Positions 2,696 to 24,994 of a DNA stretch of 46,375 nt are shown one piece after another. A program made the translations under genes and the position numbers. Positions within the stretch are counted from its first letter, which is position 1, and each line of letters begins with the position of its first letter. The notes under the pieces were generated by a model that had not been told where the DNA came from, did no database searches, and worked only from the letters and a program-made list of their open reading frames with translations. Origin of the DNA: Escherichia phage N15; the sequence record NC_001901.1. One strand, written 5' to 3'.

Positions 2696-4284
2696 AAATA
2701 CCATCTTTAGTGGGACCTGACGGGAAAACATCCCTTCGGGAATACGCGGGATATCATGGAGGTGGTGGCGGGTTTGGTGGTCAGCTGCGAGGCTGGAATC
2801 CGCCGAGCGAAAGTGCAGATGCAGCACTCCTTCCCAACTATTCTCGTGGAAATGCCCGCGCTGACGATCTGGTGCGAAATAATGGCTATGCGGCAAATGC
2901 CGTGCAGCTCCACCAGGACCACATCGTCGGGTCATTTTTCAGACTCAGTTATCGACCAAGCTGGCGTTATCTGGGTATTAATGAGGAAGATTCACGCGCA
3001 TTTTCGCGGGATGTGGAAGCTGCATGGAATGAGTATGCCGAGGATGACTTTTGCGGGATTGATGCCGAACGTAAGCGCACGTTTACGATGATGATCCGCG
3101 AAGGTGTGGCCATGCATGCGTTTAACGGTGAATTATGCGTGCAGGCGACCTGGGACAGCGATTCAACGCGTCTTTTCCGCACCCAGTTCAAAATGGTCAG
3201 TCCGAAGCGCGTCAGCAACCCGAACAATATCGGTGATACCCGGAACTGTCGTGCCGGTGTAAAAATCAATGATAGCGGTGCTGCGCTGGGATATTACGTC
3301 AGCGACGATGGCTATCCCGGCTGGATGGCGCAAAACTGGACCTACATCCCTCGCGAACTACCCGGCGGTCGACCTTCGTTTATCCATGTATTCGAACCGA
3401 TGGAGGATGGACAGACCCGTGGGGCCAATGCGTTTTACAGCGTGATGGAGCAGATGAAAATGCTCGACACCCTGCAAAATACCCAGCTCCAGAGCGCGAT
3501 AGTGAAGGCTATGTATGCGGCTACCATCGAGAGTGAGCTGGATACCCAATCGGCGATGGACTTTATTCTCGGTGCAGATAATAAAGAGCAGCAGAGCAAA
3601 CTGACGGGCTGGCTCGGCGAAATGGCAGCCTATTACTCTGCTGCGCCGGTTCGCCTTGGCGGGGCAAGGGTCCCACACCTGTTGCCAGGGGATTCTCTTA
3701 ACCTTCAGTCGGCGCAGGATACCGATAACGGCTATTCAACGTTCGAACAATCCCTGCTGCGTTATATTGCTGCAGGGCTGGGTGTGTCGTATGAGCAGCT
3801 TTCACGAAATTATTCGCAGATGAGCTACTCGACCGCACGCGCAAGTGCTAACGAGTCCTGGGCGTACTTTATGGGGCGTCGAAAGTTTGTGGCATCCCGA
3901 CAGGCCTGTCAGATGTTTCTTTGCTGGCTTGAAGAGGCGATTGTCCGCCGCGTGGTCACGCTTCCTTCGAAAGCCAGGTTCAGTTTCCAGGAGGCGAGAA
4001 CAGCCTGGGGGAATGCCAACTGGATTGGTTCTGGTCGAATGGCAATTGACGGTCTGAAAGAGGTGCAGGAAGCCGTCATGCTAATCGAAGCAGGTCTCAG
4101 TACGTATGAGAAAGAGTGCGCCAAACGCGGTGATGATTATCAGGAGATTTTTGCCCAGCAGGTCCGGGAATCAATGGAGCGTCGTGCTGCGGGTCTGAAC
4201 CCACCGGCATGGGCCGCTGCCGCTTTTGAGGCTGGAGTGAAAAAATCAAACGAGGAGGAGCAAGATGGCGCACGAGCTGCGTAA
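2692..4284 (+). CDS. portal protein (lambda gpB-like)
   Basis: 530 aa, position and size as lambda B; start overlaps W stop (ATGA). Confidence 0.9.
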
Positions 4285-5608
4285 TCTTCCGCATATTGCC
4301 AGTATGGCCTTTAATGAGCCACTGATGCTTGAACCCGCCTACGCGCGGGTTTTCTTTTGCGCGCTGGCTGGCCAGCTGGGTATCACCCGGCTGACAGATA
4401 CTGTCGCTGGCATCACGCTTGATGCAGGACAAATTGCCGAACCGCTGGCGTTATTTGGTGATGATGATGACATGGAACCCCGTCCATCACGCAGTTATCA
4501 AGTGGCAAATGGTGTCGCAGTTTTACCCGTTTCCGGCACGCTGGTCAGTAAAACCCGCTCGCTGCAGCCTTATTCCGGCATGACGGGTTACAACGGGATC
4601 ATCGCTCGCCTGCAGCAGGCAATCAGTGACCCCGGCGTAGATGGCATCCTGCTGGATATGGATACGCCAGGCGGAATGGTGTCCGGGGCATTTGACTGCG
4701 CCGACATTATTGCCCGTATGCGCGATATCAAACCCATCTGGGCGCTGGCCAATGACATGAACTGCAGCGCAGGGCAGCTTATTGCCAGTTCAGCATCGCG
4801 GCGGCTGGTCACACAAACGGCCAGAACCGGATCCATCGGGGTCATGATGGCGCACAGCAACTATGGTGCTGCGCTCAAAACTAACGGCGTTGAGGTCTCG
4901 CTGATTTACAGCGGCGATCACAAGGTCGACGGCAACCCTTACGAAAAACTACCAGAAGATGTGCGTGCTGATTTCCAGACGCGTATCGATGCCACTCGTC
5001 AGATGTTCGCCGAAAAGGTTTCCGCTTATACCGGTATGTCCGTTCAGGACGTACTGGACACCGAAGCGGCAGTATTCTCCGGCCAGGAGTCAGTGGACAA
5101 CGGTTTGGCGGATGAACTTGTTAACAATACCGATGCGCTCGGCGTGATGCGCGAAGCACTCGACAGACGCAAAAAAATAACCATTGGAGGAACTATGCCA
5201 TCACCTTCTGCATCAGCTGTGGCCACTAAGCCAGCTGACCAGGCAGCAACTCAGACAACTGCCTCAGCTGAACAGGTCACTACCGTTGACACGACCATTG
5301 CTTCCGTAGAGGCCCCTGTAGATGTCAGTGCGCAGGTCACTGCAGCAGTAGCTGCAGAGAATAGCCGCATCATGGGCATCCTGAACTGTGAAGAGGCGAA
5401 AGGGCGTGAGTCACAGGCGCGTGCACTGGCCGAAACGCCGGGTATGACGGTAGAGAGTGCACAGCGCATTCTGGCGGCTGCACCGCAAAGTGCCCAAGCG
5501 CGTACCGACACGGCGCTGGATCGTCTGATGGAAACAGCACCAGGCGCACTTTCAGCAGGCAGCGCATCTTCTGATGCCGCTGACGATTTGTTAAACACCC
5601 CAGTTTAA
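4265..5608 (+). CDS. head maturation protease / minor capsid protein (lambda gpC-like, S49/ClpP-like)
   Basis: 447 aa, strong RBS GAGGAGGAG, synteny after portal, Ala/Gln-rich C-terminal scaffold-like tail. Confidence 0.85.
   Translation: MAHELRNLPHIASMAFNEPLMLEPAYARVFFCALAGQLGITRLTDTVAGITLDAGQIAEPLALFGDDDDMEPRPSRSYQVANGVAVLPVSGTLVSKTRSLQPYSGMTGYNGIIARLQQAISDPGVDGILLDMDTPGGMVSGAFDCADIIARMRDIKPIWALANDMNCSAGQLIASSASRRLVTQTARTGSIGVMMAHSNYGAALKTNGVEVSLIYSGDHKVDGNPYEKLPEDVRADFQTRIDATRQMFAEKVSAYTGMSVQDVLDTEAAVFSGQESVDNGLADELVNNTDALGVMREALDRRKKITIGGTMPSPSASAVATKPADQAATQTTASAEQVTTVDTTIASVEAPVDVSAQVTAAVAAENSRIMGILNCEEAKGRESQARALAETPGMTVESAQRILAAAPQSAQARTDTALDRLMETAPGALSAGSASSDAADDLLNTPV
5195..5608 (+). 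CDS. putative nested scaffold protein (lambda Nu3-like), in-frame internal start within C
   Basis: GGAGG RBS 5 nt upstream of in-frame ATG at 5195; lambda C/Nu3 paradigm. Confidence 0.5.
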   Translation: MPSPSASAVATKPADQAATQTTASAEQVTTVDTTIASVEAPVDVSAQVTAAVAAENSRIMGILNCEEAKGRESQARALAETPGMTVESAQRILAAAPQSAQARTDTALDRLMETAPGALSAGSASSDAADDLLNTPV

Positions 5609-5617
5609 GAGGCTATC

Positions 5618-5950
5618 ATGGCAATTACTGAAGTTTTCACACATAAGCAGCCGCTCGGTAACAGCGACCCGGCACACACCGCGTATGGTCCTGGCGAACT
5701 GACGGCTTCCACTCCAGCCATGACACCGCTCATGCTGGATGCCACTTCTGGCAAGCTGACCGTCTGGGATGGTGCTCATGCTGGCGCGGCAACAGGCATC
5801 CTCGCTGTAACCGCAGACCAGAACAGCGCAGAACTGGCTTTTTATAAATCTGGCTCTTTCCGTATTGAAGATGTCCTCTGGCCATCTGCCGTCACCGACG
5901 AAAACATTAAACGTAACGCGTTCGCCGGTACTGCAATCAGCATCGTTTAA
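5618..5950 (+). CDS. head decoration protein (lambda gpD-like)
   Basis: 110 aa; GNSDPAHTA...AMTPLMLD...FAGTAISIV matches remembered lambda D. Confidence 0.9.
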
Positions 5951-5980
5951 TCCGCGTTTTTACAACCACCATCATTCATA

Positions 5981-6006
5981 AAAGCCGCCTGCGCGGCTTT
6001 TTTTAT
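5981..6006 (+). terminator. rho-independent terminator-like hairpin after D gene
   Basis: agccgcctgcgcggct stem-loop followed by T8. Confidence 0.6.
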
Positions 6007-6017
6007 GGGAAAAATCT

Positions 6018-7043
6018 ATGTCCGTTTACACCACTGCCCAGCTGCTGGCGGTCAATGAGAAGAAATTCAAATTCGATCCGCTCTTCCTGCGCATCTTTTT
6101 CCGCGAAACTTATCCCTTCAGTACAGAGAAGGTTTACCTGTCGCAAATTCCTGGCCTGGTCAACATGGCGCTGTACGTCTCGCCGATTGTCTCCGGCAAA
6201 GTGATCCGCTCCCGTGGCGGCAGCACGTCTGAATTCACGCCAGGTTATGTGAAGCCGAAACACGAAGTTAACCCACTGATGACTCTTCGCCGCCTGCCGG
6301 ATGAGGATCCACAGAACCTCGCTGACCCGGTCTACCGCCGTCGCCGCATTATCCTCCAGAACATGAAGGATGAAGAGCTGGCGATTGCGCAGGTCGAAGA
6401 GAAGCAGGCTGTTGCGGCGGTACTCAGTGGGAAATACACCATGACCGGGGAAGCGTTCGAGCCTGTTGAAGTTGATATGGGGCGCAGCGCTGGTAACAAC
6501 ATTGTCCAGGCCGGTGCGGCTGCGTGGTCCTCCCGCGACAAAGAAACGTATGACCCGACCGATGACATTGAAGCCTACGCGCTCAACGCCAGCGGTGTGG
6601 TCAACATCATTGTGTTCGATCCGAAGGGCTGGGCGCTGTTCCGTTCCTTCAAGGCAGTGAAGGAGAAACTGGATACGCGTCGAGGCTCTAACTCTGAGCT
6701 GGAAACCGCCCTGAAAGACCTGGGCAAGGCAGTTTCCTACAAGGGGATGTATGGCGATGTGGCCATCGTGGTCTACTCCGGCCAGTACATCGAAAACGAC
6801 GTCAAAAAGAACTATCTGCCAGACCTGACGATGGTCCTGGGTAACACTCAGGCGCGCGGCCTGCGTACCTATGGTTGCATTCTTGATGCCGATGCCCAGC
6901 GAGAAGGTATCAACGCTTCGACGCGTTACCCGAAAAACTGGGTGCAAACGGGCGATCCGGCGCGTGAATTCACCATGATTCAGTCAGCCCCGCTGATGCT
7001 GCTGGCAGACCCGGACGAGTTCGTGTCCGTCAAGCTGGCATAA
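6018..7043 (+). CDS. major capsid protein (lambda gpE-like)
   Basis: 341 aa, same length as lambda E and near-colinear with it (YTTAQLLA...KFKFDPLFLR...GLRTYGCI...MLLADPDEFVSV). Confidence 0.95.
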   Translation: MSVYTTAQLLAVNEKKFKFDPLFLRIFFRETYPFSTEKVYLSQIPGLVNMALYVSPIVSGKVIRSRGGSTSEFTPGYVKPKHEVNPLMTLRRLPDEDPQNLADPVYRRRRIILQNMKDEELAIAQVEEKQAVAAVLSGKYTMTGEAFEPVEVDMGRSAGNNIVQAGAAAWSSRDKETYDPTDDIEAYALNASGVVNIIVFDPKGWALFRSFKAVKEKLDTRRGSNSELETALKDLGKAVSYKGMYGDVAIVVYSGQYIENDVKKNYLPDLTMVLGNTQARGLRTYGCILDADAQREGINASTRYPKNWVQTGDPAREFTMIQSAPLMLLADPDEFVSVKLA

Positions 7044-7088
7044 CTTCCACCTGTGGCCCATTCGGGCCACCTTTCTGGAGTATTACCC

Positions 7089-7523
7089 ATGACAGAGAAA
7101 GAAAAGCTGATTGCTCGGCTGAATGAACTTGGTACCCAGCTTAACCGCGAAGTCAGCACCAGCGGCACCATTCAGGAACTCACTATGCGTATTGCTGAGC
7201 TTGAAGAGGAGCTGGATGGAGACGCCACCTCGGTTGACGGCGAAAGCGGCGGGCAGAATGCTGCCGACAGCACCGACAGCACCGACAGCACCGACAGCAC
7301 CGACAGCACCGACAGCGATGTTGCTGATGTGGAAAAAGTAAAATCGGAAGCGGGTACAAATGGTGACCAGGTATCAGTAGAAACGCTGGCTACCCTGCAT
7401 GTTGAGGCACTACATGCCACGCGTAACGAACCGGTATCCATCGTTGAGCCCGGTGTGATTATCCGCGTATCCGAACAGGATGCAGACGAGCTGATCTCAA
7501 AGGGGCTGGCTCGCGAAGTCTGA
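7089..7523 (+). CDS. DNA packaging protein (lambda gpFI-like) with internal (TDS)n repeat
   Basis: RBS CTGGAG then ATG at 7089; LIARLNELGTQLNREVS and LHVEALHATRNEPV resemble lambda FI; longer ORF from 7053 lacks RBS. Confidence 0.75.
   Translation: MTEKEKLIARLNELGTQLNREVSTSGTIQELTMRIAELEEELDGDATSVDGESGGQNAADSTDSTDSTDSTDSTDSDVADVEKVKSEAGTNGDQVSVETLATLHVEALHATRNEPVSIVEPGVIIRVSEQDADELISKGLAREV
7266..7316 (+). repeat. tandem 9-bp repeat (gacagcacc) x5.7 encoding DSTDSTDSTDSTDSTDSD inside FI-like gene
   Basis: Direct reading of sequence; perfect tandem copies. Confidence 0.95.
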
Positions 7524-7533
7524 AGGGGGCCGC

Positions 7534-7887
7534 ATGGCTGATTTCGATAATCTCTTTGACGAGGCCATGTCGCGAGCAGATGGTGCTATCCGTGGTGTGA
7601 TGGGTACAGAGGCAAAGGTGATGTCAGGCACTTTGTCAGGTGCAACCCTGGTCGGTGTATTTGATGATCCAGAAAACATCGGTTATGCCGGCGCCGGGAT
7701 TCGCGTTGAAGGTACCAGCCCGACGCTGTTTGTTAAAACCTCCACAGTCAGCCAGCTGCAGCGTATGGACACACTGACGATTAACGGGCGGCAATTCTGG
7801 GTTGATCGTGTTGGTCCTGATGATTGTGGATCATGTCACATCTGGCTGGGTAACGGCACTCCGCCAGCTTCTTCGCGCCGCCGTTAA
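7534..7887 (+). CDS. head completion / head-tail joining protein (lambda gpFII-like)
   Basis: 117 aa; MADFDNLFD...FDDPENI...FWVDRV...PDD.GSCH.WLG matches lambda FII. Confidence 0.9.
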   Translation: MADFDNLFDEAMSRADGAIRGVMGTEAKVMSGTLSGATLVGVFDDPENIGYAGAGIRVEGTSPTLFVKTSTVSQLQRMDTLTINGRQFWVDRVGPDDCGSCHIWLGNGTPPASSRRR

Positions 7888-7896
7888 GGAGCGCCC

Positions 7897-8451
7897 ATGT
7901 CATTAAAAGGCCTTGAACAGGCGATAGAAAACCTTAACAGCATCAGCAAAACGGCTGTCCCGCGTGCGTCGGCGCAGGCTGTTAACCGCGTGGCAAACCG
8001 GGCCGTCAGCCGCAGCGTGGCGGTCGTATCAAAAGATACGCGCGTACCGCGAAAACTGGTAAAGCAACGCGCCAGGGTGAAGCGTGCGACGGTCAATAAA
8101 CCTCGCGCGCTTATCCGTGTAAACCGGGGCAATTTACCGGCCATTAAACTCGGAACCGCAAGCGTGCGACTTTCCCGCAGAAAACGGGATAAGAAAGGGG
8201 CCAACAGCGTTCTGCGTATAGGGCCGTTCCGTTTTCCGGGCGGTTTTATCCAGCAACTTAAAAATGGCCGCTGGCATGTCATGAGGCGTACGTCAAAACC
8301 TCGTTACCCCATTGAAGTGGTCAGCATCCCGCTGGCAGCTCCATTAACTACGGCGTTTAAAGAAGAACTGCCAAAGCTCATGGAGTCAGATATGCCCAAA
8401 GAACTCCGGGCATCCCTTACCAACCAACTCAGGTTAATTCTGACACGATGA
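7897..8451 (+). CDS. tail completion protein (lambda gpZ-like)
   Basis: 184 aa; LEQA.ENL..ISKTAVP...KLVK.RARLKRATV resemble lambda Z. Confidence 0.85.
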   Translation: MSLKGLEQAIENLNSISKTAVPRASAQAVNRVANRAVSRSVAVVSKDTRVPRKLVKQRARVKRATVNKPRALIRVNRGNLPAIKLGTASVRLSRRKRDKKGANSVLRIGPFRFPGGFIQQLKNGRWHVMRRTSKPRYPIEVVSIPLAAPLTTAFKEELPKLMESDMPKELRASLTNQLRLILTR

Positions 8452-8846
8452 AACACAGAGATATTCGCAAGGTGATTATTGACGCGCTGGAGAGCGCGAT
8501 TGGTACTGACGCCATTTATTTTGACGGCAGACCTGCAGTGCTCGAAGAGGGTGATTTTCCCGCTGTTGCCGTTTACCTGACCGATGCGGAATACACAGGG
8601 GAAGAACTGGACGCCGACACCTGGCAGGCCATTCTGCATATCGAAGTCTTTCTTGAGGCTCAGGTACCTGATTCTGAGCTGGATGACTGGATGGAGACGC
8701 GAGTGTATCCGGTTCTCGCAGAGGTTCCAGGGCTTGAATCCCTTATCACCACAATGGTTCAGCAGGGCTATGACTACCAGCGCGATGACGATATGGCGCT
8801 GTGGAGTTCTGCCGACCTGAAATATTCCATTACTTACGACATGTGA
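8448..8846 (+). CDS. tail terminator protein (lambda gpU-like)
   Basis: 132 aa; [39 protein letters not shown] matches lambda U. Confidence 0.9.
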
Positions 8847-8853
8847 GGACCCT

Positions 8854-9591
8854 ATGGCCACACCAAACCCGCTGGCACCAACAAAAGGTGCTGGTACCAC
8901 CCTCTGGGTTTACACCGGAACCGGTGATCCATACGCCAATCCGCTTTCAGACGTTGACTGGCTGCGTCTGGCAAAGATTAAAGACCTGCAGCCCGGTGAA
9001 CTGACCGCCGAATCTGAGGATGACACCTACATCGATGATGAGAATGCCGACTGGACATCAACGATGCAGGGGCAGAAATCAGCCGGTGAAACCAACCTCA
9101 CTCTCGCGTGGATGCCGGGAGATTCCGGTCAGCAGGACCTGGTGAACTGGTTCGATGAAGGCACCGTGAAGGGGTATAAAATCAAATATCCGAATGGTGT
9201 TGTCGACGTCTTTAAGGGCTGGGTGAGCAGTCTAGGCAAGACCATCTCGTCTAAAGAGGTCATGACCCGCACGGCAAAAATCACCAACAATGGCAAACCA
9301 TCGCTGGCCGAAGACAGTGGTACAGCGCCGATTGCTGTTACGGGGATCAGCCTGGATAAATCCACGGCGGCTGTGGCGGTTGCAGCCACGACGCAACTGG
9401 TGGTTTCTGTCCTGCCAGCAAGTGCTTCAGATAAGTCTTTCCGCGTAGCCAGCTCTGATCCATCAAAAGCAACGGTCACCGTCAGCGGTAATACCCTGAC
9501 TGTCACCGGCGTAGCGGCAGGCACCGTCGAAATCATCGTCATGAGCAATGATGGTAACTTTGTGGCGATCTGCAAAGTCACTGTTTCCTGA
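8854..9591 (+). CDS. major tail tube protein (lambda gpV-like) with C-terminal Big_2-like Ig domain
   Basis: 245 aa; C-terminal [15 protein letters not shown]...[16 protein letters not shown] typical of bacterial Ig-like domain; synteny. Confidence 0.9.
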
Positions 9592-9628
9592 TAACCGGGG
9601 CGCGAGCCCCGTTCCCCCCGGAGTAATT

Positions 9629-10051
9629 ATGTTTCTAAAGAGCGAACTGCTTGAATGCAACGGCAGCAGCGTCACATTGTTCCAGCTGTCAGCGCTACAG
9701 CGTATTGAACACCTCGAATACCTGAAACAGCTGGAAGCGGTTGAGGTGGGCGATTTTCAGGCGGCCATTACCTTTACTGTGAAGAGTGGAGCGTATCTCG
9801 TCGCAATGTCGCTCTGGCACGGACACCCTTTGAAAGGCTCACAGGGAGAAAACGCGGCGGCGGAAGTGGCAAAGATTCAGGATGAGGTCATGCAGACATG
9901 GCCGACCGAACTGGTTGCCGAAGCGGAATATAAGGTGAAACTCCTGTCCGGAATGATTGCGCCTGTCATTGATGAACCGACTTCATCCGGTGAAGAACGT
10001 AATGAACCTGCTGAACCCGTTACTGCGGAAAAGCCCTCGCCAGTGAGCTGA
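9629..10051 (+). CDS. tail assembly chaperone (lambda gpG-like)
   Basis: RBS GGAG before ATG 9629; MFLKSE...VTLFQLSALQRIEHLEYLKQ resembles lambda G. Confidence 0.8.
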   Translation: MFLKSELLECNGSSVTLFQLSALQRIEHLEYLKQLEAVEVGDFQAAITFTVKSGAYLVAMSLWHGHPLKGSQGENAAAEVAKIQDEVMQTWPTELVAEAEYKVKLLSGMIAPVIDEPTSSGEERNEPAEPVTAEKPSPVS

Positions 10052-10059
10052 AATTTGCC

Positions 10060-10380
10060 ATGAAACTGGCGCGTGAGTTCGGTCGCCCGGACTGGCGTGC
10101 CATGCTTGCTGGCATGTCCTCAACGGAGTACGGCGACTGGAAAATCTTCTACCAGGACAATTATTTTCATGATGCGCAGCTGGATGCTCATTTCTCCGGT
10201 TTGCTCTACACCATCTCAACCCTGTTTTTTGCCGATCCGGAGTTAACCCCGGACAGTTTCAGCATTCTTTCCCCTGCACCGGAAGCCATCGACATCGATG
10301 ATCCGGATGACGATACGCTGATGGCGAAGGCTGCAGGTATTTCAGGAGGCGTGCGCTATGGCCCAGACGGCAGTCGGTGA
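10060..10380 (+). CDS. gpT-like region, probably expressed only as G-T fusion by -1 frameshift near 10027-10033
   Basis: ORF in -1 frame relative to G, open from 10015; lambda G/T programmed frameshift paradigm. Confidence 0.55.
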   Translation: MKLAREFGRPDWRAMLAGMSSTEYGDWKIFYQDNYFHDAQLDAHFSGLLYTISTLFFADPELTPDSFSILSPAPEAIDIDDPDDDTLMAKAAGISGGVRYGPDGSR

Positions 10381-12874
10381 CCTGGTCGTTAACCTTGACG
10401 TTAACTCGACAAAATTCAACGAGCAGCTCAGCTACGTTAAAAAAGAATTAAAGCAGACCGGCAATACGGCAAACGATGAAGCGTTACGTATCCAGCAGTC
10501 CTTCAGCCGCCAGGAGAACGCCGCGCGTAAGGCGGGTATTTCAGTGGGTCAGTATAACGCAGCGATGCGTATGCTCCCGGCGCAGTTTACTGACGTGGCC
10601 ACGCAGCTTGCGGGTGGGCAGAACCCCTGGCTGATTCTGCTTCAGCAGGGCGGTCAGGTTAAGGACTCCTTTGGCGGGATCATTCCGACATTCCGGGCGT
10701 TGCTGGGGACGATTTCCCCGTTGATGGTCGGCATTGGTGCATTGTCCGTTGCAACGGGCGCGTTGTTCTATGCCTGGTACCAGGGCTCTTCCACTCTGTC
10801 TGATTTCAACAAAACGCTGGTACTGTCGGGGAACACAGCCGGACTGACAGCTGACCGCATGCTGGCACTGGCGCGGAACGGACAGGCAGCGGGGCTAACG
10901 TTCAACCAGACCAGTGAAGCCCTGACCGAGCTTATCAATGCAGGTGTGCGTACTGGCTCGCGCTTTGATGAAATGAGCCAGGCGGTGGCGCGGTTTACTG
11001 ATGCCTCCGGCGTGCCGGTGGAGAAAGTCGCGGCAGCCTATGGCAAGCTCGCAACTGACCCGACATCGGGCCTGATCGCGATGGCCCAGCAGTTCCATAA
11101 CGTTACCGCTGAACAGATTGCCCATGTGGCGCAGCTGCAGCGTGCCGGTGATGAGGCTGGCGCACTGCAGGCGGCTAACGAGGCTGCAACAGCCGGATTC
11201 AACGACCAGACCAAAGCCATCCGCGACAATATGGGGACGATTGAATCTTCAGCGGACTCCCTGAAGCGCGCCTTCAAGTCGATGTGGGATGCGGCTCTGG
11301 ATATTGGGCGACCTGACACCGCGCAGGAGATGGTGGCAAAAGCCGAAGCTGCGTTCAAAAAAGCCGATGAAATCTGGAACCTGCGTAAAGGTGACCGATA
11401 TGTCAATGATGAGGCCCGCGCCCGATTCTGGAATGACCGCGAAACAGCCAGACTGGCGCTGGATATGGCGCAGCAGCAGGCGGGAATAGCCAGGGCGAAT
11501 GAAGAGAATGCATCGCGCGAAGCGGCTGCTGAATCGGATCGCCAGAAGTATGCTGCGCAGGCACAGGCAAACTATGCCAAAACGCAGACGGCACTGGAGA
11601 AATACACGGCCAGGCAGAGCGAGCTTAACAAGGCGCTGAAAGAGGGGCGGATCCTCCAGGCTGACTACAACATCAACCTGGCTGCCGCGAAAAAAGAGTA
11701 CGAAGACACCCTTAAAAAGCCGAAGAAGACCCCGGCAATCAGAACCCCCGCAGGTGCCCGTGCAACCGATACGGCCAGCGCCCAGACGCTGGAGCTGCAG
11801 GCACAGCTGCGCACCCTGCAGGAGCATAAGAGCATCAATGACACCATCAGCCAGCAGCGTCAGGAGCTGTGGCGTCAGCAGTCCCGCTTTACGGTTCTGG
11901 AAGAGGCCGCGAAGACCCGGACGCTTTCTGCTGAGGAAAAATCCCTGCTGGCCAGTAAAAGCGAGGTGCTTTCCCGTGCGGAGCTGAATGCGAAGCTCGG
12001 CGATCAGATAGTGGCTCAGGAGCGGCTTAATCGCCTGCAGGATACGTCTCAAAAATACGTCACGCAGATCGGCGAGAAAACCCGAGCCCTGGCGGAAAGT
12101 GCTGGTATGAGCAGTCGTGCAGCACAACGCCGCAATGAAGAGGCCCAGCTTCTTCAGGGCTGGAAAAATGGTGGCGGGTCTGAGAACGATGCCGGTTATC
12201 AGAATGAGCTACAGGCGCTGCAGGCGTATTACGCCGAGCAGGATAAGCTGCGGGACGACTGGCAATCCGGGGCCAAATCCGCATGGGCAGATTATGTTGA
12301 TTCTGCTTCAGATGCTTATGGCCAGATGAAGTCGTTTGCCACCAGTACGTTTGATGGCATCGGGCAAAATATGGCTGACATGCTGACGCGCGGAAAGGCT
12401 GACTGGGCTGACTTCACCCGCTCCACGCTCTCCATGCTGACACAGATCCTGCTGAAACAGGCGATGGTAGGCCTGGTGGATTCAGCGACAACCGCGCTGG
12501 GATTTGCAGGTGGCGGTTATACCGGTTCAGGCGGGAAATATGAACCTGCAGGTGTCGTTCACCGTGGTGAATTTGTTTTCACCAAAGAGGCTACAAACCG
12601 GATCGGCGTCGGCAATCTTTACCGGATGATGAAAGGGTATGCCACGGGTGGGTATGTCGGGGGCGGTGGTACAGGTCCAGCTGCAGCACCTTTCGGTGTC
12701 AGTGTATATGCCCCGGTGACGGTCGAAAATGCTTCCGGTAACGCACAGCAGCAAAACGACGGAGACAGGCTGGGTAAAGCGTATCAGCAGGTGATTAACA
12801 AATCTGTCAACGATGGCATCGCCAGGGCAATCCAGCCCGGTGGGCTTATCTGGAATGCGACCAATCGCAGGTAA
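10358..12874 (+). CDS. tail tape measure protein (lambda gpH-like)
   Basis: 838 aa, AGGAGG RBS, long coiled-coil-rich sequence, Gly-rich C-terminal part, synteny. Confidence 0.95.
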   Translation: MAQTAVGDLVVNLDVNSTKFNEQLSYVKKELKQTGNTANDEALRIQQSFSRQENAARKAGISVGQYNAAMRMLPAQFTDVATQLAGGQNPWLILLQQGGQVKDSFGGIIPTFRALLGTISPLMVGIGALSVATGALFYAWYQGSSTLSDFNKTLVLSGNTAGLTADRMLALARNGQAAGLTFNQTSEALTELINAGVRTGSRFDEMSQAVARFTDASGVPVEKVAAAYGKLATDPTSGLIAMAQQFHNVTAEQIAHVAQLQRAGDEAGALQAANEAATAGFNDQTKAIRDNMGTIESSADSLKRAFKSMWDAALDIGRPDTAQEMVAKAEAAFKKADEIWNLRKGDRYVNDEARARFWNDRETARLALDMAQQQAGIARANEENASREAAAESDRQKYAAQAQANYAKTQTALEKYTARQSELNKALKEGRILQADYNINLAAAKKEYEDTLKKPKKTPAIRTPAGARATDTASAQTLELQAQLRTLQEHKSINDTISQQRQELWRQQSRFTVLEEAAKTRTLSAEEKSLLASKSEVLSRAELNAKLGDQIVAQERLNRLQDTSQKYVTQIGEKTRALAESAGMSSRAAQRRNEEAQLLQGWKNGGGSENDAGYQNELQALQAYYAEQDKLRDDWQSGAKSAWADYVDSASDAYGQMKSFATSTFDGIGQNMADMLTRGKADWADFTRSTLSMLTQILLKQAMVGLVDSATTALGFAGGGYTGSGGKYEPAGVVHRGEFVFTKEATNRIGVGNLYRMMKGYATGGYVGGGGTGPAAAPFGVSVYAPVTVENASGNAQQQNDGDRLGKAYQQVINKSVNDGIARAIQPGGLIWNATNRR

Positions 12875-12879
12875 CAGTT

Positions 12880-13227
12880 ATGACGATAGAAACATTCTCC
12901 TGGGGGATTAAGGTCTCCAGCCAGCCCACCGAGGGAAGCAAAGACACTGTCAGGAAGATCCAGTTCGGCGACGGGTACGCACAGGTGAGCGGCTCAGGTC
13001 TGAATGACGAGATTCGCACCTATGAGTTTTCCTTTTCAGGGGATCCGATTACAGCGAATGAAATTCATGCCTTCCTTCGGCGGCATAAAGTGAAATCGTT
13101 TATTTTCACTCCGCCGTTCGGCGATACCGCGCTGTGGCGTGTCGAGGCTGACACGCTCAAAAAGGTGGTTAAAAACGTAAAAGTGATAACCGTAACCGCA
13201 ACGTTTGAACAGGCATTTGCACCATGA
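12880..13227 (+). CDS. minor tail protein (lambda gpM-like)
   Basis: 115 aa, synteny after tape measure. Confidence 0.8.
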   Translation: MTIETFSWGIKVSSQPTEGSKDTVRKIQFGDGYAQVSGSGLNDEIRTYEFSFSGDPITANEIHAFLRRHKVKSFIFTPPFGDTALWRVEADTLKKVVKNVKVITVTATFEQAFAP

Positions 13228-13979
13228 GTCTTAATGCTGATTATCAAAAACTTGAGCCGGGCAATGAAGTCCGGCTTTTTTCTGTCGATGGCACAGCGTT
13301 CGGTATGTCAGATGTACTCCGCTTTCACGCACATAACATCGCGCATACCCCGGAAGAGATTGAGGCTGCAGGCGGGGATGAGAATAAACTTCCGGCGAAG
13401 TCCATCTGGTGGCAGGGGGAGGAGTATAAAGCCTGGCCGTGTCAGGTTGAGGGTATTGAAGCGACCACGGACGGTACTAGTCCACAGCCAAAACTGACGG
13501 TGGCGAACCTCGACAGCTCTATCTCGGCGCTCTGTCTGGCGTATGACGATCTGCTGCAGGCGAAAGTCACTATCCATGACACGCTGGCGAAGTATCTGGA
13601 TGCCAGAAACTTTCCGCAGGGTAACCCCACCGCAGATCCGTCACAGGAAAAGCTGAAGGTCTTTTATATTGACGCCAGAAACACCGAGACGGATGAAGTG
13701 GTGGAATTTATCCTTTCCAGCCCGATGGATTTACAGGGCCGGATGATACCGACCCGGCAGCTGCATTCTCTGTGTTCCTGGTGCATCCGGAACAAATACC
13801 GAACCGGCGACGGCTGCGACTACGCCGGAACGCGCTATTTCGACAAGCACAATAACCCTGTTGACGATCCTTCGCTGGATGAATGCAACGGTACGCTGAC
13901 GGCCTGCAAGCTGCGTCATGGAGACAGCAACGAGCTGCCGTTCGGCGGTTTCCCCGGTACATCCCTTATCAGGAGCTGA
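13224..13979 (+). CDS. minor tail protein (lambda gpL-like)
   Basis: 251 aa, Cys-rich C-terminal cluster (CSWC...C...C), synteny. Confidence 0.8.
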   Translation: MSLNADYQKLEPGNEVRLFSVDGTAFGMSDVLRFHAHNIAHTPEEIEAAGGDENKLPAKSIWWQGEEYKAWPCQVEGIEATTDGTSPQPKLTVANLDSSISALCLAYDDLLQAKVTIHDTLAKYLDARNFPQGNPTADPSQEKLKVFYIDARNTETDEVVEFILSSPMDLQGRMIPTRQLHSLCSWCIRNKYRTGDGCDYAGTRYFDKHNNPVDDPSLDECNGTLTACKLRHGDSNELPFGGFPGTSLIRS

Positions 13980-13980
13980 T

Positions 13981-14712
13981 ATGCGCCAGAAAACCATTGA
14001 TGCCATCATGGCGCACGCCGCTGCGGAATATCCGCGCGAGTGCTGCGGCGTGGTAGCGCAGAAAAGCCGGGTTGAGCGCTATTTCCCCTGCCGCAACCTC
14101 TCAGCCGAGCCGACAGAGCATTTTCACCTTTCTCCTGAAGACTACGCAGCTGCCGAGGACTGGGGGACGGTGGTGGCCATTGTTCACAGCCACCCTGACG
14201 CCACGACACAGCCGAGCGAACTGGATAAAGCGCAATGTGATGCAACGCTGCTGCCCTGGCATATTGTGAGCTGGCCGGAGGGGGATTTACGCACTATTCA
14301 GCCGCGCGGGGAACTGCCGCTACTGGAGCGCCCGTTCGTGCTTGGCCACTTTGATTGCTGGGGGCTGGTCATGAGCTATTTCCGGCAGACCCACGGTATC
14401 GAACTCCATGATTACCGCGTCGACTATCCCTGGTGGGAGAACAGCTATCCGGACAACTTCTATCAGGACTGCTGGTACGAGTGCGGATTCAGGGAGTTTG
14501 ACGGCCCGCCTCAGGAAGGGGACCTCGTCATCATGCAGGTGCAGGCGGATAAGTGGAACCATGCCGGAATATTGCTGGAAGGTAACATGCTGCTGCACCA
14601 TCTTTACGGGCATCTGAGCCAGCGCGTGCCGTATGGTGGCTACTGGCAGGAGCGCACGATGAAAATCGTTCGATATAAAGATGTAAGGGGTAATGAAGCA
14701 TGCAGGAAGTGA
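13981..14712 (+). CDS. tail assembly protein (lambda gpK-like), JAMM/MPN + NlpC/P60-like
   Basis: HSHPDATTQPSELD JAMM-like motif and Cys/His motif FDCWGLV; ATG immediately after L stop. Confidence 0.85.
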   Translation: MRQKTIDAIMAHAAAEYPRECCGVVAQKSRVERYFPCRNLSAEPTEHFHLSPEDYAAAEDWGTVVAIVHSHPDATTQPSELDKAQCDATLLPWHIVSWPEGDLRTIQPRGELPLLERPFVLGHFDCWGLVMSYFRQTHGIELHDYRVDYPWWENSYPDNFYQDCWYECGFREFDGPPQEGDLVIMQVQADKWNHAGILLEGNMLLHHLYGHLSQRVPYGGYWQERTMKIVRYKDVRGNEACRK

Positions 14713-15290
14713 TGAGCCGTATTGAGCTTGGCGGTGTGCTCGGAAAAACGTTCGGCAAAGTTCATCATCGCCTGATTTCCCGCGTGAGCGAGGCGGGTGT
14801 TGCGCTGGCAAAGACGGTTCCGGGATTTGAGCAGTTTATGATCTCCAGCCAGCGCCGTGGGCTCACTTATTCCGTATTCAAAGGGAAAAAGAATATTGGT
14901 GTTGATGACCTTGGCTTCCCGGTCACCGGCGATGTTATCCGCATTGTTCCGGTCATTATCGGGAGTAAAAAAGCGGGTGTACTACAGACTATTTTAGGTG
15001 CGGTTCTGGTTGCTGTCGGTGTGGTTCTTAATTTCACGCCCTGGGCTGCGGCTTCACCATTCTTCTACAAACTTGGTGCCGCAGTCATGCTGGGCGGCGT
15101 TGTCCAGATGCTTTCCCCTCAACCAGCGGGTCTGGCCAGCAAACAAAGCTCTGATAACCGCGCCTCCTACGCGTTTGGCGGGGTCACAAATACCGCTGCG
15201 CAGGGCTACCCGGTACCACTTCTTTATGGTCGTCGGCGAATTGGCGGCGCGATTATTTCTGCCGGGATATATGTCGAAGATCAGCAGTAA
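14700..15290 (+). CDS. tail assembly protein (lambda gpI-like)
   Basis: 196 aa; hydrophobic Gly/Ala-rich middle and LLYGRRRIGG tail resemble lambda I. Confidence 0.8.
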   Translation: MQEVMSRIELGGVLGKTFGKVHHRLISRVSEAGVALAKTVPGFEQFMISSQRRGLTYSVFKGKKNIGVDDLGFPVTGDVIRIVPVIIGSKKAGVLQTILGAVLVAVGVVLNFTPWAAASPFFYKLGAAVMLGGVVQMLSPQPAGLASKQSSDNRASYAFGGVTNTAAQGYPVPLLYGRRRIGGAIISAGIYVEDQQ

Positions 15291-15304
15291 ATAAAAACCT
15301 TCTT

Positions 15305-15331
15305 TCAGCCACCTCCGGGTGGCTTTTTTTA
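15305..15331 (+). terminator. rho-independent terminator-like hairpin between I-like and J-like genes
   Basis: agccacctccgggtggct hairpin followed by T7. Confidence 0.6.
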
Positions 15332-15341
15332 TGGGCGCAAT

Positions 15342-18300
15342 ATGGCTACATCTACTCCGATTAGAGGCCGCAAGGGCGGCAGCTCCAGTTCCCGCACCCC
15401 TACCGAACAACCAGACGATCTCCAGTCCGTAGCGAAGGCCAAGATTCTTGTTGCGCTGGGAGAGGGGGAATTTGCCGGGCAGCTAACGGCTAAAGATATT
15501 TATCTTGATGGCACACCACTTGAGAACGCTGATGGGTCGCAGAACTTTAGCGGCGTGGCGTGGGAGTTCCGTCCGGGGACTCAGGCTCAAAACTACATCC
15601 AGGGAATCCCCGGTACCGAGAATGAAATCAGCGTCGGTACCGAAGTTTCAAGCGCTACCGCCTGGACGCACACCTTTACCAATACCCAACTGTCAGCTGT
15701 TCGTCTGCGGCTCAAATGGCCATCGCTGTTTAAACAGGAGGACGACGGCGATCTGGTTGGCTATTCGATTAACTACGCTATTGATCTGCAGACCGATGGC
15801 GGCACCTGGCAGACGGTGCTTAATACCAGCGTAACCGGGAAAACAACATCCGGCTACGAGCGCAGCCACCGTATCGACTTACCACAGGCGGGAAGCACAT
15901 GGACGGTACGCATTCGCAAGCTCACGGCAGATGCCAATAGCGCGAAAATAGGCGACAAGATGACGCTGCAGAGCTACACAGAGGTCATTGACGCCAAACT
16001 GCGTTATCCAAATACCGCGCTGCTGTACATCGAATTCGACTCAAGCCAGTTTAACGGCTCTATCCCGCAAATATCCTGCGAACCGCGAGGGCGTGTTATC
16101 CGCGTACCGGATACTTACGACCCAGAAACCCGCACTTATAACGGCACCTGGCTGGGGACGTTTAAATGGGCATGGACTGATAATCCGGCCTGGATTTTTT
16201 ACGATCTGGTGGTGAGTGACCGCTTTGGCCTTGGCGACCGCCTGACGGCAGCAAATATTGATAAATGGACGCTTTACCAGGTTGCACAATATTGCGATCA
16301 GCCGGTACCAGACGGAAAAGGCGGTTCCGGCACCGAGCCTCGCTATACCTGTAACGTGTATGTGCAGGAGAGGAATGACGCTTATACCGTTTTGCGTGAT
16401 TTTGCGGCCATATTCCGTGGCATGACGTACTGGGGCGGCGATCAAATCGTTGCGCTGGCTGATATGCCCCGCGATGTGGATTACAGCTATACGCGCGCTA
16501 ATGTGGTTGACGGCCGTTTTACCTATTCAGGCAGCACCACGAAAACCCGCTACACCACGGCACTGGTTTCCTGGTCCGATCCGGGCAACGCCTATGCAGA
16601 CGCGATGGAGCCTGTATTTGAACAGGAACTCGTGTCCCGCTTTGGTTCAAACCAGCTCGAAATGACAGCTATTGGTTGTACCCGACAGTCAGAGGCAAAC
16701 CGTAAGGGGCGCTGGGGTATCCTGACCAATAATAAGGATCGCGTCGTATCGTTCAATGTCGGTCTGGACGGCAACATTCCACAGCCCGGTTATATTATTG
16801 CGGTTGCCGATGAGCTGCTATCCGGGAAGGTGATGGGAGGGCGTATCAGAGCGGTTAATGGTCGCGTCATTACTCTAGATCGTGATTCTGCAGCAGCAGC
16901 CGGAAGCCGCCTCATGGTTAACCTGCCGTCTGGCGCATCGCAGAGCAGGACGATACAGAGCGTAAACGGTCGGGCGGTCACCGTGACCACGGCATACAGC
17001 GAAACGCCGGAAGTAGAATCGGTGTGGATTGTCGAATCCGACGAGCTTTATGCGCAGCAATATCGCGTTATTAGCGTCGCTGATAATAATGATGGAACGT
17101 TTTCGATTTCGGGTGTTTTTCACGATCCGGATAAGTATGCCCGTATTGATACCGGCGCAATCATCGACCAGCGACCAATAAGCGTTATTCCTCCAGGTAA
17201 CCAGTCTGCGCCAGCCAATATTGTGATCAGCTCGTTTTCGGTGGTTCAGCAGAATGTCAGCGTTGAGACCATGCGCGTCAGCTGGGACCAGGCGAAAAAC
17301 GCAATTGCCTATGAGGCACAGTGGCGTCGTAATGACGGGAACTGGGTGAATGTGCCGCGCAGCTCCACCACATCCTTCGATGTTCCGGGCATTTACGCAG
17401 GACGCTATCTGGTTCGTGTGCGTGCCATAAATGCCGCCGAAATTTCGTCCGGATGGGGCTATTCAGAAGAGAAAACGCTGACGGGGAAAGTGGGCAATCC
17501 GCCAAAGCCTGTTGGATTCACGGCCACGGGCATTAACTGGGGGATTCGTCTGAACTGGGGGTTTCCGGCAAACACCGGCGATACGTTAAAAACGGAAATC
17601 CAGTACACAGCTAATAGCGACTTTTCAGATCCTTTGCTGCTTACCGACGTCCCATATCCCTCATCTGAATATATCCAGCTTGGACTGAAGGCTGGGCAAG
17701 AGTTCTGGTACCGCGCGCAGCTGGTCGACAGAACGGGTAACGAGTCCGGGTATACCGACTGGATAAGGGGGATGTCTAACGATAATGCCGATGATTATCT
17801 TGGCGATCTTGCAGACGACTTTATGAAGGCGGAGGACGGGGAGCGTCTTACCGGTGATATAGATACCAATATTGAGGGAATACTGCAGAACGCGCTGGCC
17901 AATCATGGAACAGTCGAGCATCAATGGGCGCAATACGGAGAAGTTCGTGCCGATATTCTTGTAGTCAAAACGACTATTGCTGAAGTTGACAGGGCAATGG
18001 CCGAAATGTCAACTCAGGTGCAGGCGCAGATAAGCGACGTCACTGCGGCACTGGAGGACAAACTTACCGCCGTGGTCGATGCCTCCGGCGCTTCGGCGAT
18101 CTACACCCTTAAAGCAGGCGTGAGGATAAACGGCATCATGTATAACGCAGGGATGTCGATTGCCGTTCTGGCGCAGGCAGGGCAGCCGATTGTTACCCGC
18201 GTAGGTTTCAACGCTAACCAGTTCGTGCTGATGAGTGGCAGTGGTGATACCCAGTATTCGCCGTTCGCGGTGGTTAATGGCCAGGTCTTTATCAGCTCTG

Positions 18301-18527
18301 CGTTTATCCAGGATGGCACGATCACGAATGCCAAAATCGGTAATTTTATCCAGTCCAACAATTATGTCGCCGGGCAGTCCGGGTGGAAACTGGATAAAGG
18401 AGGTACCTGGGAAAACTACGGCAGCGACGGGGAGGGCGCAAGAAAGACTACGAATGTAACGGACAGCATCAGGGACGCGAACGGCGTTCTCCGCGTACAG
18501 ATTGGTAAAATTACGGGGGTATTTTGA
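15342..18527 (+). CDS. central tail fibre / host specificity protein (lambda gpJ-like)
   Basis: 1061 aa; gpJ family N-terminal region and internal fibronectin-III-like segment; synteny. Confidence 0.95.
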   Translation: MATSTPIRGRKGGSSSSRTPTEQPDDLQSVAKAKILVALGEGEFAGQLTAKDIYLDGTPLENADGSQNFSGVAWEFRPGTQAQNYIQGIPGTENEISVGTEVSSATAWTHTFTNTQLSAVRLRLKWPSLFKQEDDGDLVGYSINYAIDLQTDGGTWQTVLNTSVTGKTTSGYERSHRIDLPQAGSTWTVRIRKLTADANSAKIGDKMTLQSYTEVIDAKLRYPNTALLYIEFDSSQFNGSIPQISCEPRGRVIRVPDTYDPETRTYNGTWLGTFKWAWTDNPAWIFYDLVVSDRFGLGDRLTAANIDKWTLYQVAQYCDQPVPDGKGGSGTEPRYTCNVYVQERNDAYTVLRDFAAIFRGMTYWGGDQIVALADMPRDVDYSYTRANVVDGRFTYSGSTTKTRYTTALVSWSDPGNAYADAMEPVFEQELVSRFGSNQLEMTAIGCTRQSEANRKGRWGILTNNKDRVVSFNVGLDGNIPQPGYIIAVADELLSGKVMGGRIRAVNGRVITLDRDSAAAAGSRLMVNLPSGASQSRTIQSVNGRAVTVTTAYSETPEVESVWIVESDELYAQQYRVISVADNNDGTFSISGVFHDPDKYARIDTGAIIDQRPISVIPPGNQSAPANIVISSFSVVQQNVSVETMRVSWDQAKNAIAYEAQWRRNDGNWVNVPRSSTTSFDVPGIYAGRYLVRVRAINAAEISSGWGYSEEKTLTGKVGNPPKPVGFTATGINWGIRLNWGFPANTGDTLKTEIQYTANSDFSDPLLLTDVPYPSSEYIQLGLKAGQEFWYRAQLVDRTGNESGYTDWIRGMSNDNADDYLGDLADDFMKAEDGERLTGDIDTNIEGILQNALANHGTVEHQWAQYGEVRADILVVKTTIAEVDRAMAEMSTQVQAQISDVTAALEDKLTAVVDASGASAIYTLKAGVRINGIMYNAGMSIAVLAQAGQPIVTRVGFNANQFVLMSGSGDTQYSPFAVVNGQVFISSAFIQDGTITNAKIGNFIQSNNYVAGQSGWKLDKGGTWENYGSDGEGARKTTNVTDSIRDANGVLRVQIGKITGVF

Positions 18528-18829
18528 TGACGTGGGGCATTCAGACGTGGGATGCCAATGGCAACCCGAACAATTACGGTATTAAGCCAGTTTCAGTGGT
18601 AGGCCGCATCCCGCTTTCTGAGGGGCAAAATTCCGGAAGCTGGTCTTTTGCCATTCCGGCAGGAATGAAGGTTGGGTTTGCCGTTTCTCTGGATAAGGGG
18701 GCGGTCTCTGTGGGACGACGTATCGTCGCCAGCGGAAATACGATAACTCTTTCCGCGGCAAGCAGCGTAGGGATTGGAAACTATCCAGCATCTGAATGTG
18801 AGCTCATAGTTTATGTGGAGAAAGCCTAA
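18527..18829 (+). CDS. hypothetical protein downstream of J
   Basis: ATG overlapping J stop (ATGA); shares W-x-I/F-x-x-WDA-x-G motif with next ORF. Confidence 0.5.
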   Translation: MTWGIQTWDANGNPNNYGIKPVSVVGRIPLSEGQNSGSWSFAIPAGMKVGFAVSLDKGAVSVGRRIVASGNTITLSAASSVGIGNYPASECELIVYVEKA

Positions 18830-19506
18830 TGGCAGATTATGGCGCGCTGATTGCTCTGGAAAACGGAAATCCTTTTATTACCCCACAGTCCACACCATTC
18901 TGTCTATACAGAAAGGTAGTGGTTAACTCAGTGGCAAATGGGGCATACCACGGTGCTTCTGCGACGGTAGCTCTGGATGCTTCTTATCCGGCGATGGTTT
19001 TTTGCAAAACGAGTGATACAGCCCAGCCCACTACAGTCGGGGCAACCCGGTCAGGAGGAAACATTCTTGTTGGATCGAGCAGTCCTTATGGACAGGCACA
19101 TACATTAACGGCTTACATCTTTGCTATTTATCCTCAGACATTGCCAAAATGGGGATTTGCTATCTGGGATGCCACTGGGAAGTTGGTTCTGACAAACGAA
19201 AGTCGGATATTGAGTGACCTTGTGACTGTTGGGTCGCCTGGATCTACGACAGGTGGAATTAATATTGACGTCACTCTGCCTGGTAGTTATGCGGTGGCAC
19301 CCGCTATTCTTGGCTCCCAGATAATCCAGAACAATAACACTAAACCACCCACTATTGTGAATATCACCGCTTACTCAGGATGTCGGTTTAATGGTTCATC
19401 AACCAGAATTAATGCCGCGCCGTCGACAACGGCTACAGGTTCTGCTGCGGGAGGGACAACGACTGGAATAGCTTTGACGGCCATCAACACCGCAGCATAC
19501 GATTAA
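18829..19506 (+). CDS. hypothetical protein downstream of J (paralogous motif to preceding ORF)
   Basis: RBS GGAGAAAG; start overlaps previous stop; Thr/Gly/Ala-rich C-terminus. Confidence 0.5.
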   Translation: MADYGALIALENGNPFITPQSTPFCLYRKVVVNSVANGAYHGASATVALDASYPAMVFCKTSDTAQPTTVGATRSGGNILVGSSSPYGQAHTLTAYIFAIYPQTLPKWGFAIWDATGKLVLTNESRILSDLVTVGSPGSTTGGINIDVTLPGSYAVAPAILGSQIIQNNNTKPPTIVNITAYSGCRFNGSSTRINAAPSTTATGSAAGGTTTGIALTAINTAAYD

Positions 19507-19617: not shown

Positions 19618-19854
19618 ATGGGAAAAACCATTATTGCCATTGGATTTTCGTTATTACTTTCTGGATGCTCAGGTATGCTCGAAAAGCAGTCTCCAGTGTG
19701 TACTGGCACAGCTTTGATAGGTGGTCAGGAAACAGAAGTTCAAATTTACAGCATTCGTAAGCAAAACAATCAGACTATGTATCGAGCTGGCTATCCGTTC
19801 AATTGGCAGTGGGTTGGGAAAAATAACTTTATTTCAACCACGTGTGGCACCTAA
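19618..19854 (+). CDS. cor: small lipoprotein, Cor-like (FhuA-directed superinfection exclusion / lysogenic conversion)
   Basis: 78 aa, signal peptide with lipobox LLSGC; AT-rich upstream region; terminator downstream; position after tail genes as for phi80/N15 cor. Confidence 0.6.
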   Translation: MGKTIIAIGFSLLLSGCSGMLEKQSPVCTGTALIGGQETEVQIYSIRKQNNQTMYRAGYPFNWQWVGKNNFISTTCGT

Positions 19855-20020
19855 ATTTGTTATTAAAAATGCTATAAGGTAGCATTATGTCGCTGTTGTG
19901 AATCCACCTATGCGGATGGGCGTACAGCTGAGCTATCTCTGATGAGATCGTAAACGAGACCGCGGACTCTTTGGCTGGAGAGTTCACTGGGAGGCACCCA
20001 GCACAACAGCAACCAATTAC

Positions 20021-20047
20021 AAACCCTGCTTCGGCAGGGTTTTTTAT
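20021..20047 (+). terminator. rho-independent terminator
   Basis: accctgcttcggcagggt hairpin followed by T-run. Confidence 0.7.
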
Positions 20048-20065
20048 TGCCCAAAAGGAGGGCAT

Positions 20066-22078: not shown

Positions 22079-22085
22079 AAAGCGA

Positions 22086-22115
22086 AAAGCCCCACGTATG
22101 TGGGGCTTTTTTTAT
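22086..22115. terminator. bidirectional terminator between umuD'-like and sopB
   Basis: agccccacgtatgtggggct hairpin flanked by A-run and T-run. Confidence 0.7.
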
Positions 22116-24830: not shown

Positions 24831-24994
24831 AGGAGAACATAAGCGCAGAACAATATGTATCTATTCCGGTGTTGTGTTCCTTTGTTATTCTGCTATTATG
24901 TTCTCTTATAGTGTGACGAAAGCAGCATAATTAATCGTCACTTGTTCTTTGATTGTGTTACGATATCCAGAGACTTAGAAACGGGGGAACCGGG

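Follow-up and report, generated by a model that had tools for sequence, protein, structure and literature searches.

The window analysed here is the complete genome of Escherichia phage N15 (NC_001901.1) in virion orientation, a stretch of 46,375 nucleotides. The junction of interest lies in the structural operon, between an I-like tail assembly gene and a J-like gene. The late-operon features and the Q gene described below are on the plus strand unless stated otherwise. The I-like gene (14700-15290) encodes 196 aa in the ORF list and ends with a TAA stop at 15288-15290. It has no match in Pfam, and its identity rests on the names of identical and homologous proteins. The exact sequence is called 'tail assembly protein' in the protein collection, and its homologue in mEp237 and HK225 is labelled 'tail assembly protein I'. 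The J-like gene (15342-18527) starts with the ATG at 15342 and encodes the central tail fibre or tip attachment protein of 1061 aa. This protein is identical to N15 gp21 (NP_046916.1) and matches the Pfam families FNIII-A_GpJ, Phage-tail_3 and Phage_Tail_Tip. Pfam also supports the assignment of D (HDPD), E (Phage_cap_E), L and K in this operon.

The two genes are separated by 51 nt. The stop codon of I is followed by an A/T-rich spacer of 16 nt (15291-15306), which is variable in relatives and is the place where some of them carry cargo insertions. Then comes a hairpin, AGCCACC-UCCG-GGUGGCU (15307-15324), with a stem of 7 bp, 5 of them G-C, and a loop of 4 nt. The energy of the stem is -13.2 kcal/mol. 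The whole gap folds at -15.3 kcal/mol, which corresponds to z = -2.15 against shuffled sequences. A U-tract of seven T (15324-15330) adjoins the hairpin, its first T being the last base of the stem. The remaining 11 nt before the ATG of J (15331-15341) make up the J leader, ATGGGCGCAAT. It has a weak GGG Shine-Dalgarno-like element, and few stretches of the region are better conserved. The hairpin is co-directional with both flanking ORFs. The first-pass annotation had placed a strong hairpin and seven T between I-like and J-like genes at 15305-15331. This is borne out by the sequence, the fold and the covariation described below, and the coordinates are correct within 2 nt.

Other signals were considered for this gap. 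A search for a J promoter gave no consensus match, and there are only 11 nt between the T-run and the ATG, so a J promoter in the gap is rejected. An ATG at 15331 could open a 33-codon ORF (15331-15432) that overlaps the start of J, but it is out of the J frame. It is probably not a real start, since the equivalent triplet is ACG in most of the relatives used for the D-E comparison below. Past the stem, the minus strand reads GAAAGAAGG, which has no T-run, so this is not a two-way terminator. Rfam has no family at the I-J hairpin or at its twin in the D-E gap.

A loose consensus scan of the whole window found 24 terminator-like sites where 18.9 ± 3.7 were expected, which is no enrichment. A score of the d'Aubenton-Carafa type, which combines hairpin energy and T-tract, exceeds 15 at 14 sites in 46 kb, both strands included. 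I-J ranks third among these with a score of 43, and D-E ranks eleventh with 28. Three plus-strand sites above 15 are in the structural operon (89-19506, 19 kb). Two of the three are the D-E and I-J gaps, and by a count from the ORF list about 1.3% of the operon is non-coding gap. The third site (13254-13277), a hairpin with six T, falls within the 5' end of gene L and is rejected as a terminator, being kept in close relatives only; in more distant ones both the T-run and the pairing are gone. Its loss where the protein sequence changes marks it as a side effect of the coding sequence. Elsewhere, hairpins with an A-run before the stem and a T-run after it make two-way terminators at 22085-22110 and 26894-26923, which are among the strongest scores of the window. 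One is between the tail-fibre region and sopB, and the other is after the protelomerase gene.

Conservation of the hairpin and insertion of cargo genes upstream

The closest viral contigs have a J N-terminus that is 90-99% identical to that of N15. All 80 of them have a hairpin and 5-8 T, located 11-22 nt upstream of J. Prophage loci across the Enterobacterales, including Xenorhabdus, Yersinia, Erwinia and Rahnella, have the hairpin and the T-run in 78 of 80 cases. One of the two exceptions has a single internal mismatch and the other is an incomplete locus. The hairpin of these prophages is 2-20 nt from the inferred start of J, and 11-20 nt from it in all but one. Every locus of the lambda clade has AACCGCC-NNNN-GGCGGTT at the same place, followed by an interrupted T-run, TTTTGTCGTTT. 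A Pseudomonas-type clade, in which J is only ~55% identical, has the order hairpin, T5-8, (A/C)ATGCC, GGAG and ATG in at least 70 of 77 loci, a lower bound because the automated finder misses stems whose A-U extension eats into the T-run. The T1 clade has the hairpin in 17 of 18 loci. In one Dhillonvirus I and J overlap and the hairpin is absent.

The stems of these hairpins are diverse: GCCACC/GGTGGC, CCGCC/GGCGG, GGACGC/GCGTCC, GGTCGC/GCGACC, ACCTCC/GGAGGT and GCCCGC/GCGGGC are all found. The pairing was examined in 91 distinct sequences aligned with MAFFT, which shifted some stems by one column and makes the following counts conservative: the stem pairs in 96.4% of cells, changes on both sides are seen in 6 of the 7 pairs, and there are 80 double-change cells compared with 28 ± 8.6 in shuffles. 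This last number was reached by none of 500 shuffles. When the partner strand was slid by 1-3 columns as a control, pairing fell to 32-60%. A register anchored on the loop is fitted to the structure and was used only for comparing G·U with A·C; its inner six pairs comprise 514 Watson-Crick, 29 G·U and 1 A·C. This imbalance implies that the target of selection is the plus-strand RNA and neither the DNA nor the other strand. A minus-strand terminator or a DNA cruciform is rejected on the same grounds, together with the lack of a minus-strand T-run. UUCG is the loop seen most often (27/91). In 100 distinct relatives that were picked for the spacing of N15, a choice that favours the T-run figure, the entropy is 0.00 bits for the T-run, 0.16 for the J leader, 1.25 for the loop and ~1.5 for the spacer. 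The corresponding values for J codon positions 1, 2 and 3 are 0.30, 0.23 and 1.13 bits. Conservation and covariation exclude a chance origin of the hairpin. The comparisons indicate that it is kept by selection as an RNA structure in hundreds of relatives.

It is worth considering what happens on the other side of the hairpin. In megablast alignments with HK225, HK022 and several E. coli prophages, homology starts at the hairpin itself (15307-15310). The identity of I is 55-96% in relatives whose J N-terminus is 90-99% identical. The distance between I and J in relatives is bimodal, being either 35-63 nt or 316-1031 nt. The long forms contain at least ten kinds of ORFs of low GC content (0.33-0.47). 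These are found on either strand, in every case upstream of the hairpin. They include an 88-aa ORF that overlaps the stop of I, a UPF0257 lipoprotein, proteins of 309-323 aa and srb-like ORFs of 73 aa. A Pfam search with ten cargo proteins identified the one UPF0257 lipoprotein and one weak aspartyl-protease match, and otherwise almost nothing. The hairpin 5' of J is present with or without cargo, and the minus-strand cargo of HK022 has a terminator-like hairpin of its own. This implies that the hairpin belongs to the J module and was not imported with cargo. The I-J junction marks a hot spot for cargo-gene insertion in relatives, a point the first-pass annotation missed. No cargo was seen in the D-E gap among 80 relatives. 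The I-J gap of N15 itself contains no ORF and has no plus-strand promoter-like site just upstream, so it does not have the makings of a moron.

Other hairpins of the late operon and the putative antitermination system

A similar terminator had been reported after the D-like gene, at 5981-6006. It is real, and we place it at 5980-6004. The D-like gene on its 5' side occupies 5618-5950 and matches Pfam HDPD, and the E-like gene on its 3' side occupies 6018-7043 and matches Pfam Phage_cap_E. The hairpin in the DNA is AAAAGCCGC-CTGC-GCGGCTTTT (5980-6001), with seven T at 5998-6004. The RNA would read AAAAGCCGC-CUGC-GCGGCUUUU followed by seven U. The energy is -8.0 kcal/mol for the GC core and -12.3 kcal/mol for the extended stem. 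We compared this site in 80 relatives, one of which has an incomplete locus. Every full-sequence locus has the stem core GCCGC/GCGGC and one flanking pair (6 bp). The T-run has 6-8 T across the set, the loop has at least 15 forms, and the upstream sequence is variable. The stem varies little, so the case for D-E rests on the pattern of conservation and not on covariation; the HK225 annotation and lambda, discussed below, also support it. Distant lambda-like head modules have comparable elements. Vibrio phage K279 has a hairpin and T-run between its D-like and E-like genes, and in Aeromonas PhAER-1 and Salmonella Season12 a hairpin is found after E rather than between D and E.

Two more hairpins in the operon were overlooked by the first-pass annotation. 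The one after E, GUGGCCC-AUUC-GGGCCAC (7053-7070), has a poor U-tract, CUUUCU. Its homologue in HK225 is annotated as a rho-independent terminator, and the sequence confirms the correspondence. The one after V, CGGGGC-GCGA-GCCCCG (9596-9611), has no U-tract and an energy of -12.4 kcal/mol, and HK225 has an annotated stem_loop at the corresponding V-G position. There are four gaps longer than 10 nt in the structural operon: D-E (67 nt), I-J (51 nt), E-FI (46 nt) and V-G (37 nt). All four contain a GC-rich hairpin, and only D-E and I-J have a full U-tract. Hairpins are thus found 3' of the three most abundant structural genes, D, E and V. A further terminator (20021-20042) is located after a cor-like lipoprotein ORF and an STnc100 match and before the tail fibre gene, and HK225 has a terminator at the corresponding position after cor. 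The surrounding region (19618-20048) is AT-rich. Its 78-aa lipoprotein ORF is apparently cor, as the corresponding HK225 gene is annotated Cor, and it is followed by the Rfam STnc100 match (19863-20048, 72.5 bits) that ends in this terminator. The region has the look of a classical moron within the late operon.

The window also encodes the protelomerase, SopA, SopB, a 1324-aa primase/helicase-like protein, an S24-type repressor, Cro, a Q-family antiterminator and a C4 antisense RNA. The last of these is a minus-strand Rfam match (C4, 78.8 bits) that adjoins a match to isrK (62.4 bits), the two occupying 28301-28489. An 18-bp palindrome, GTGCGACC-NN-GGTCGCAC, is present in four copies (33479-33496, 35930-35947, 41124-41141 and 45561-45578) where 0.01 are expected. 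The phiKO2 homologue of the copy at 41124 is annotated 'putative plasmid partitioning site', and from their sequence and arrangement the four palindromes look like dispersed centromere sites for SopB.

The Q-family gene (34959-35747) matches Phage_antiter_Q (PF06323) with E = 1.4e-110. N15 Q has been described as a putative antiterminator (PMC4488713). A candidate late promoter, TTGGCA-17 nt-TATCTT, is found at 41162-41190, and its phiKO2 homologue is annotated 'putative late promoter'. About 38 nt from it there is a promoter-proximal, tR'-like terminator, AACCGCC-UACG-GGCGGUU with a T-run (41228-41245), whose phiKO2 homologue is annotated 'terminator, putative'. The region 41162-41245 is the probable target of Q. 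Terminator score and energy identify another site between the methylase gene and a putative holin gene (42488-42506), inside the presumed late transcript. A transcript from the promoter at 41.2 kb would cross terminators at 41228, 42488, 5980, 15307 and 20021. With several canonical terminators within it, the N15 late string should depend on processive antitermination, which is expected for a phage that has Q. Lambdoid late operons are switched on via Q antitermination (PMC2629481), and the 27-gene late transcript of lambda requires Q (PMC10695390). The late promoter has been described as active in lysogens, but with the transcript stopped just downstream without Q (PMC7547250). We found no transcript data in the open literature that span the I-J or D-E sites of lambda or N15.

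The role of the I-J hairpin

We argue that the I-J site is probably a canonical intrinsic (Rho-independent) terminator of the late operon, acting on the sense strand and inherited as an ancient boundary directly 5' of J. As polymerase exits gene I, the nascent RNA would fold into the 7-bp GC-rich hairpin 16 nt past the stop codon. That distance should be enough for a terminating ribosome not to block the hairpin. Seven U follow, and we infer that unmodified polymerase would release there. In lytic growth polymerase would acquire Q at the late promoter (near 41.2 kb) and become terminator-resistant. The modified polymerase would then pass the I-J site, as it would those at 41228 and 42488, the D-E site and the one after cor. 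Q read-through is the natural reading since N15 has a Q gene as well as a likely late promoter that is followed by an early terminator. In the plasmid-prophage state Q would not be made, and the I-J site may then insulate J from stray or cargo transcription upstream. The first-pass annotation had argued that these sites would stop the late transcript unless it is antiterminated. This was sound reasoning in view of the terminator features, the conserved RNA structure, the annotations in HK225 and T1, the PF06323 Q protein and the phiKO2-like promoter and terminator. Its interpretation is partly supported as a whole, being largely right with the exception of an idea about stoichiometry that is discussed next. 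Some observations do not fit neatly. N15 has no cargo gene or promoter-like site just upstream of the hairpin, which goes against a need for insulation. The lambda clade tolerates an interrupted T-run. The terminator is also kept in T1, a virulent phage with no prophage state, so insulation in the prophage cannot be the sole reason for its upkeep. The distribution makes the boundary 5' of J look ancient and useful in lytic growth too.

The stoichiometry idea has the site as a partial attenuator. Q-modified polymerase would still terminate there sometimes, which would lower the mRNA for J and the distal tail fibre relative to the upstream genes. J is needed in few copies in lambda tails, and the Shine-Dalgarno-like element in the J leader is only weak. 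The terminator of virulent T1 must act in lytic growth, and J is preceded there by TGTATAAT. This layout suggests that J expression is deliberately uncoupled from the upstream genes. Since T1 keeps the terminator and follows it with a promoter-like element, attenuation stays alive as an idea for I-J, but not for D-E. D and E are needed in near-equal and very high copy numbers in lambda, and the major tail gene V is downstream of D-E, so attenuation at that site does not match the requirement. The genes just upstream of J (H, M, L, K and I) are likewise low-copy, which weakens the idea at I-J as well, and we consider it unlikely. One can also read the hairpin as an mRNA stability element that shields either the upstream 3' end against 3'-5' exonucleases or, once the transcript has been cleaved, the 5' end of J mRNA. 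The presence of GC-rich hairpins in all four of the larger gaps fits this, as do their position after the genes of the most abundant proteins in three of four cases and the fact that distant lambda-like head modules also have a hairpin behind a D-like or E-like gene. However, stabilisation does not call for a U-tract, and at both I-J and D-E the T-run is one of the best-conserved parts. The proteins encoded in the segment upstream of I-J are of low abundance. A stabilising role is compatible with termination and leaves the strict U-tract unexplained. As the main explanation it has some chance, though a rather small one.

The low entropy of the T-run and leader, the least variable positions (0-0.16 bits), could instead reflect the initiation of J translation. 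The U-run would be a landing pad for the ribosome (S1), and the hairpin would shield the leader from upstream structure. The order of hairpin, U-run, AUG-like triplet, Shine-Dalgarno element and start is common to N15, lambda and the Pseudomonas-type clade. But a covarying GC-rich stem with UUCG-type loops and an adjoining U-run is the signature of a terminator, and terminators of the same design close operons elsewhere in the window. The T1 hairpin is ~50 nt from the J start with a promoter-like element between. We think this reading quite improbable. The last scenario is that the hairpin is a linker for recombination at the DNA level, or the functionless leftover of a moron terminator. Homology to HK225, HK022 and several prophages does break exactly at the hairpin, the identities of I and J are uncoupled, and cargo is always inserted just upstream. 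Stems that change in sequence and still pair, tolerating G·U and not A·C, point to selection on RNA structure and not on DNA identity. The hairpin is present regardless of cargo, even where the cargo is on the opposite strand with a terminator of its own (HK022), so it is not brought in by morons. The covariation and the excess of G·U over A·C already largely refute this scenario, and we give it hardly any credence.

If the I-J site is a terminator as we argue, a wider role can be proposed tentatively. It would be an ancient maintained boundary in the lambda-like tail modules of Enterobacterales, Pseudomonas-type and T1 phages that halts every polymerase lacking the Q modification and thereby provides a universal 'safe harbour' for cargo genes upstream, and together with D-E it could be a fail-safe in lysogens. 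This is conceivable, though we would not call it likely. If true, accessory genes, possibly including defence genes, could be expressed from a prophage while J and the host-range genes stay off. The I-J and D-E terminators might then keep capsid and tail-tip proteins silent in lysogens. The J-proximal terminator is also a very stable landmark, which could help to mark off the host-range module and to locate I-J cargo in prophages. It also offers an experimental handle on the poorly studied N15-type Q.

Comparison with known systems

HK225 has the closest described counterpart. Its record (JQ086371) annotates a rho-independent terminator at 15508-15532, before the central tail fibre gene, and this is the homologous site. 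The stem AGCCACC/GGTGGCT, the T-run and the 11-nt J leader are the same as in N15. The loop is UCAG in HK225 and UCCG in N15. An additional 88-aa ORF, which overlaps the stop of I, separates I from the hairpin in HK225 and is missing from N15. The HK225 record further has terminators after D, E and cor and a stem-loop after V, matching the other hairpins of N15. Lambda has AACCGCC-UGCG-GGCGGUU between I and J, at the same position in the same gene order and with two compensatory pair changes relative to N15. Its U-tract is interrupted (UUUUGUCAUUU), unlike the seven T of N15, so the lambda I-J site should terminate more weakly. The lambda D-E gap has GGCCGC-CUGU-GCGGCU and seven T at the same position as the N15 twin.

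T1 (NC_005833) has an annotated rho-independent terminator at 24972-24994, between ST34 (the I homologue) and ST33 (the J homologue). This hairpin, AACCCGC-CUUGC-GCGGGUU with eight T, is at the same gene junction as in N15. T1 is virulent. Its terminator precedes the extended -10-like element TGTATAAT and a ~40-nt leader; N15 has no room for a promoter. From this layout J in T1 probably starts its own transcript. One Webervirus likewise has an I-J terminator followed by TGTACAAT and a longer leader. Such an extended -10-like element, TGTATAAT or TGTACAAT, is found 3' of the I-J terminator in T1-like virulent phages such as T1 and Klebsiella phage FZ10, where J seems to be transcribed separately from a promoter of its own.

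The genome as a whole resembles the lambda-type system of Q antitermination. N15 likewise has a Q-family gene, a candidate late promoter with an early terminator, and terminators within the late string. The Q gene of N15 is ~5.4 kb from the candidate late promoter, whereas the two are adjacent in the lambda-type system. We take lambda Q to be of a different family from the PF06323 protein of N15. Morons offer another comparison, and those of lambdoid phages carry their own promoter and terminator (PMC3594210). The low-GC genes that relatives have between I and the hairpin resemble such cassettes, and the hairpin would terminate the transcripts of plus-strand cargo. N15 differs in having no extra gene or promoter there, and its hairpin is independent of cargo. 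The I-J terminator had already been recognised by the annotators of HK225 and T1, so it is an ordinary site of a known kind. What is added here is modest: how widely the site is conserved, and the cargo hot spot that it borders.
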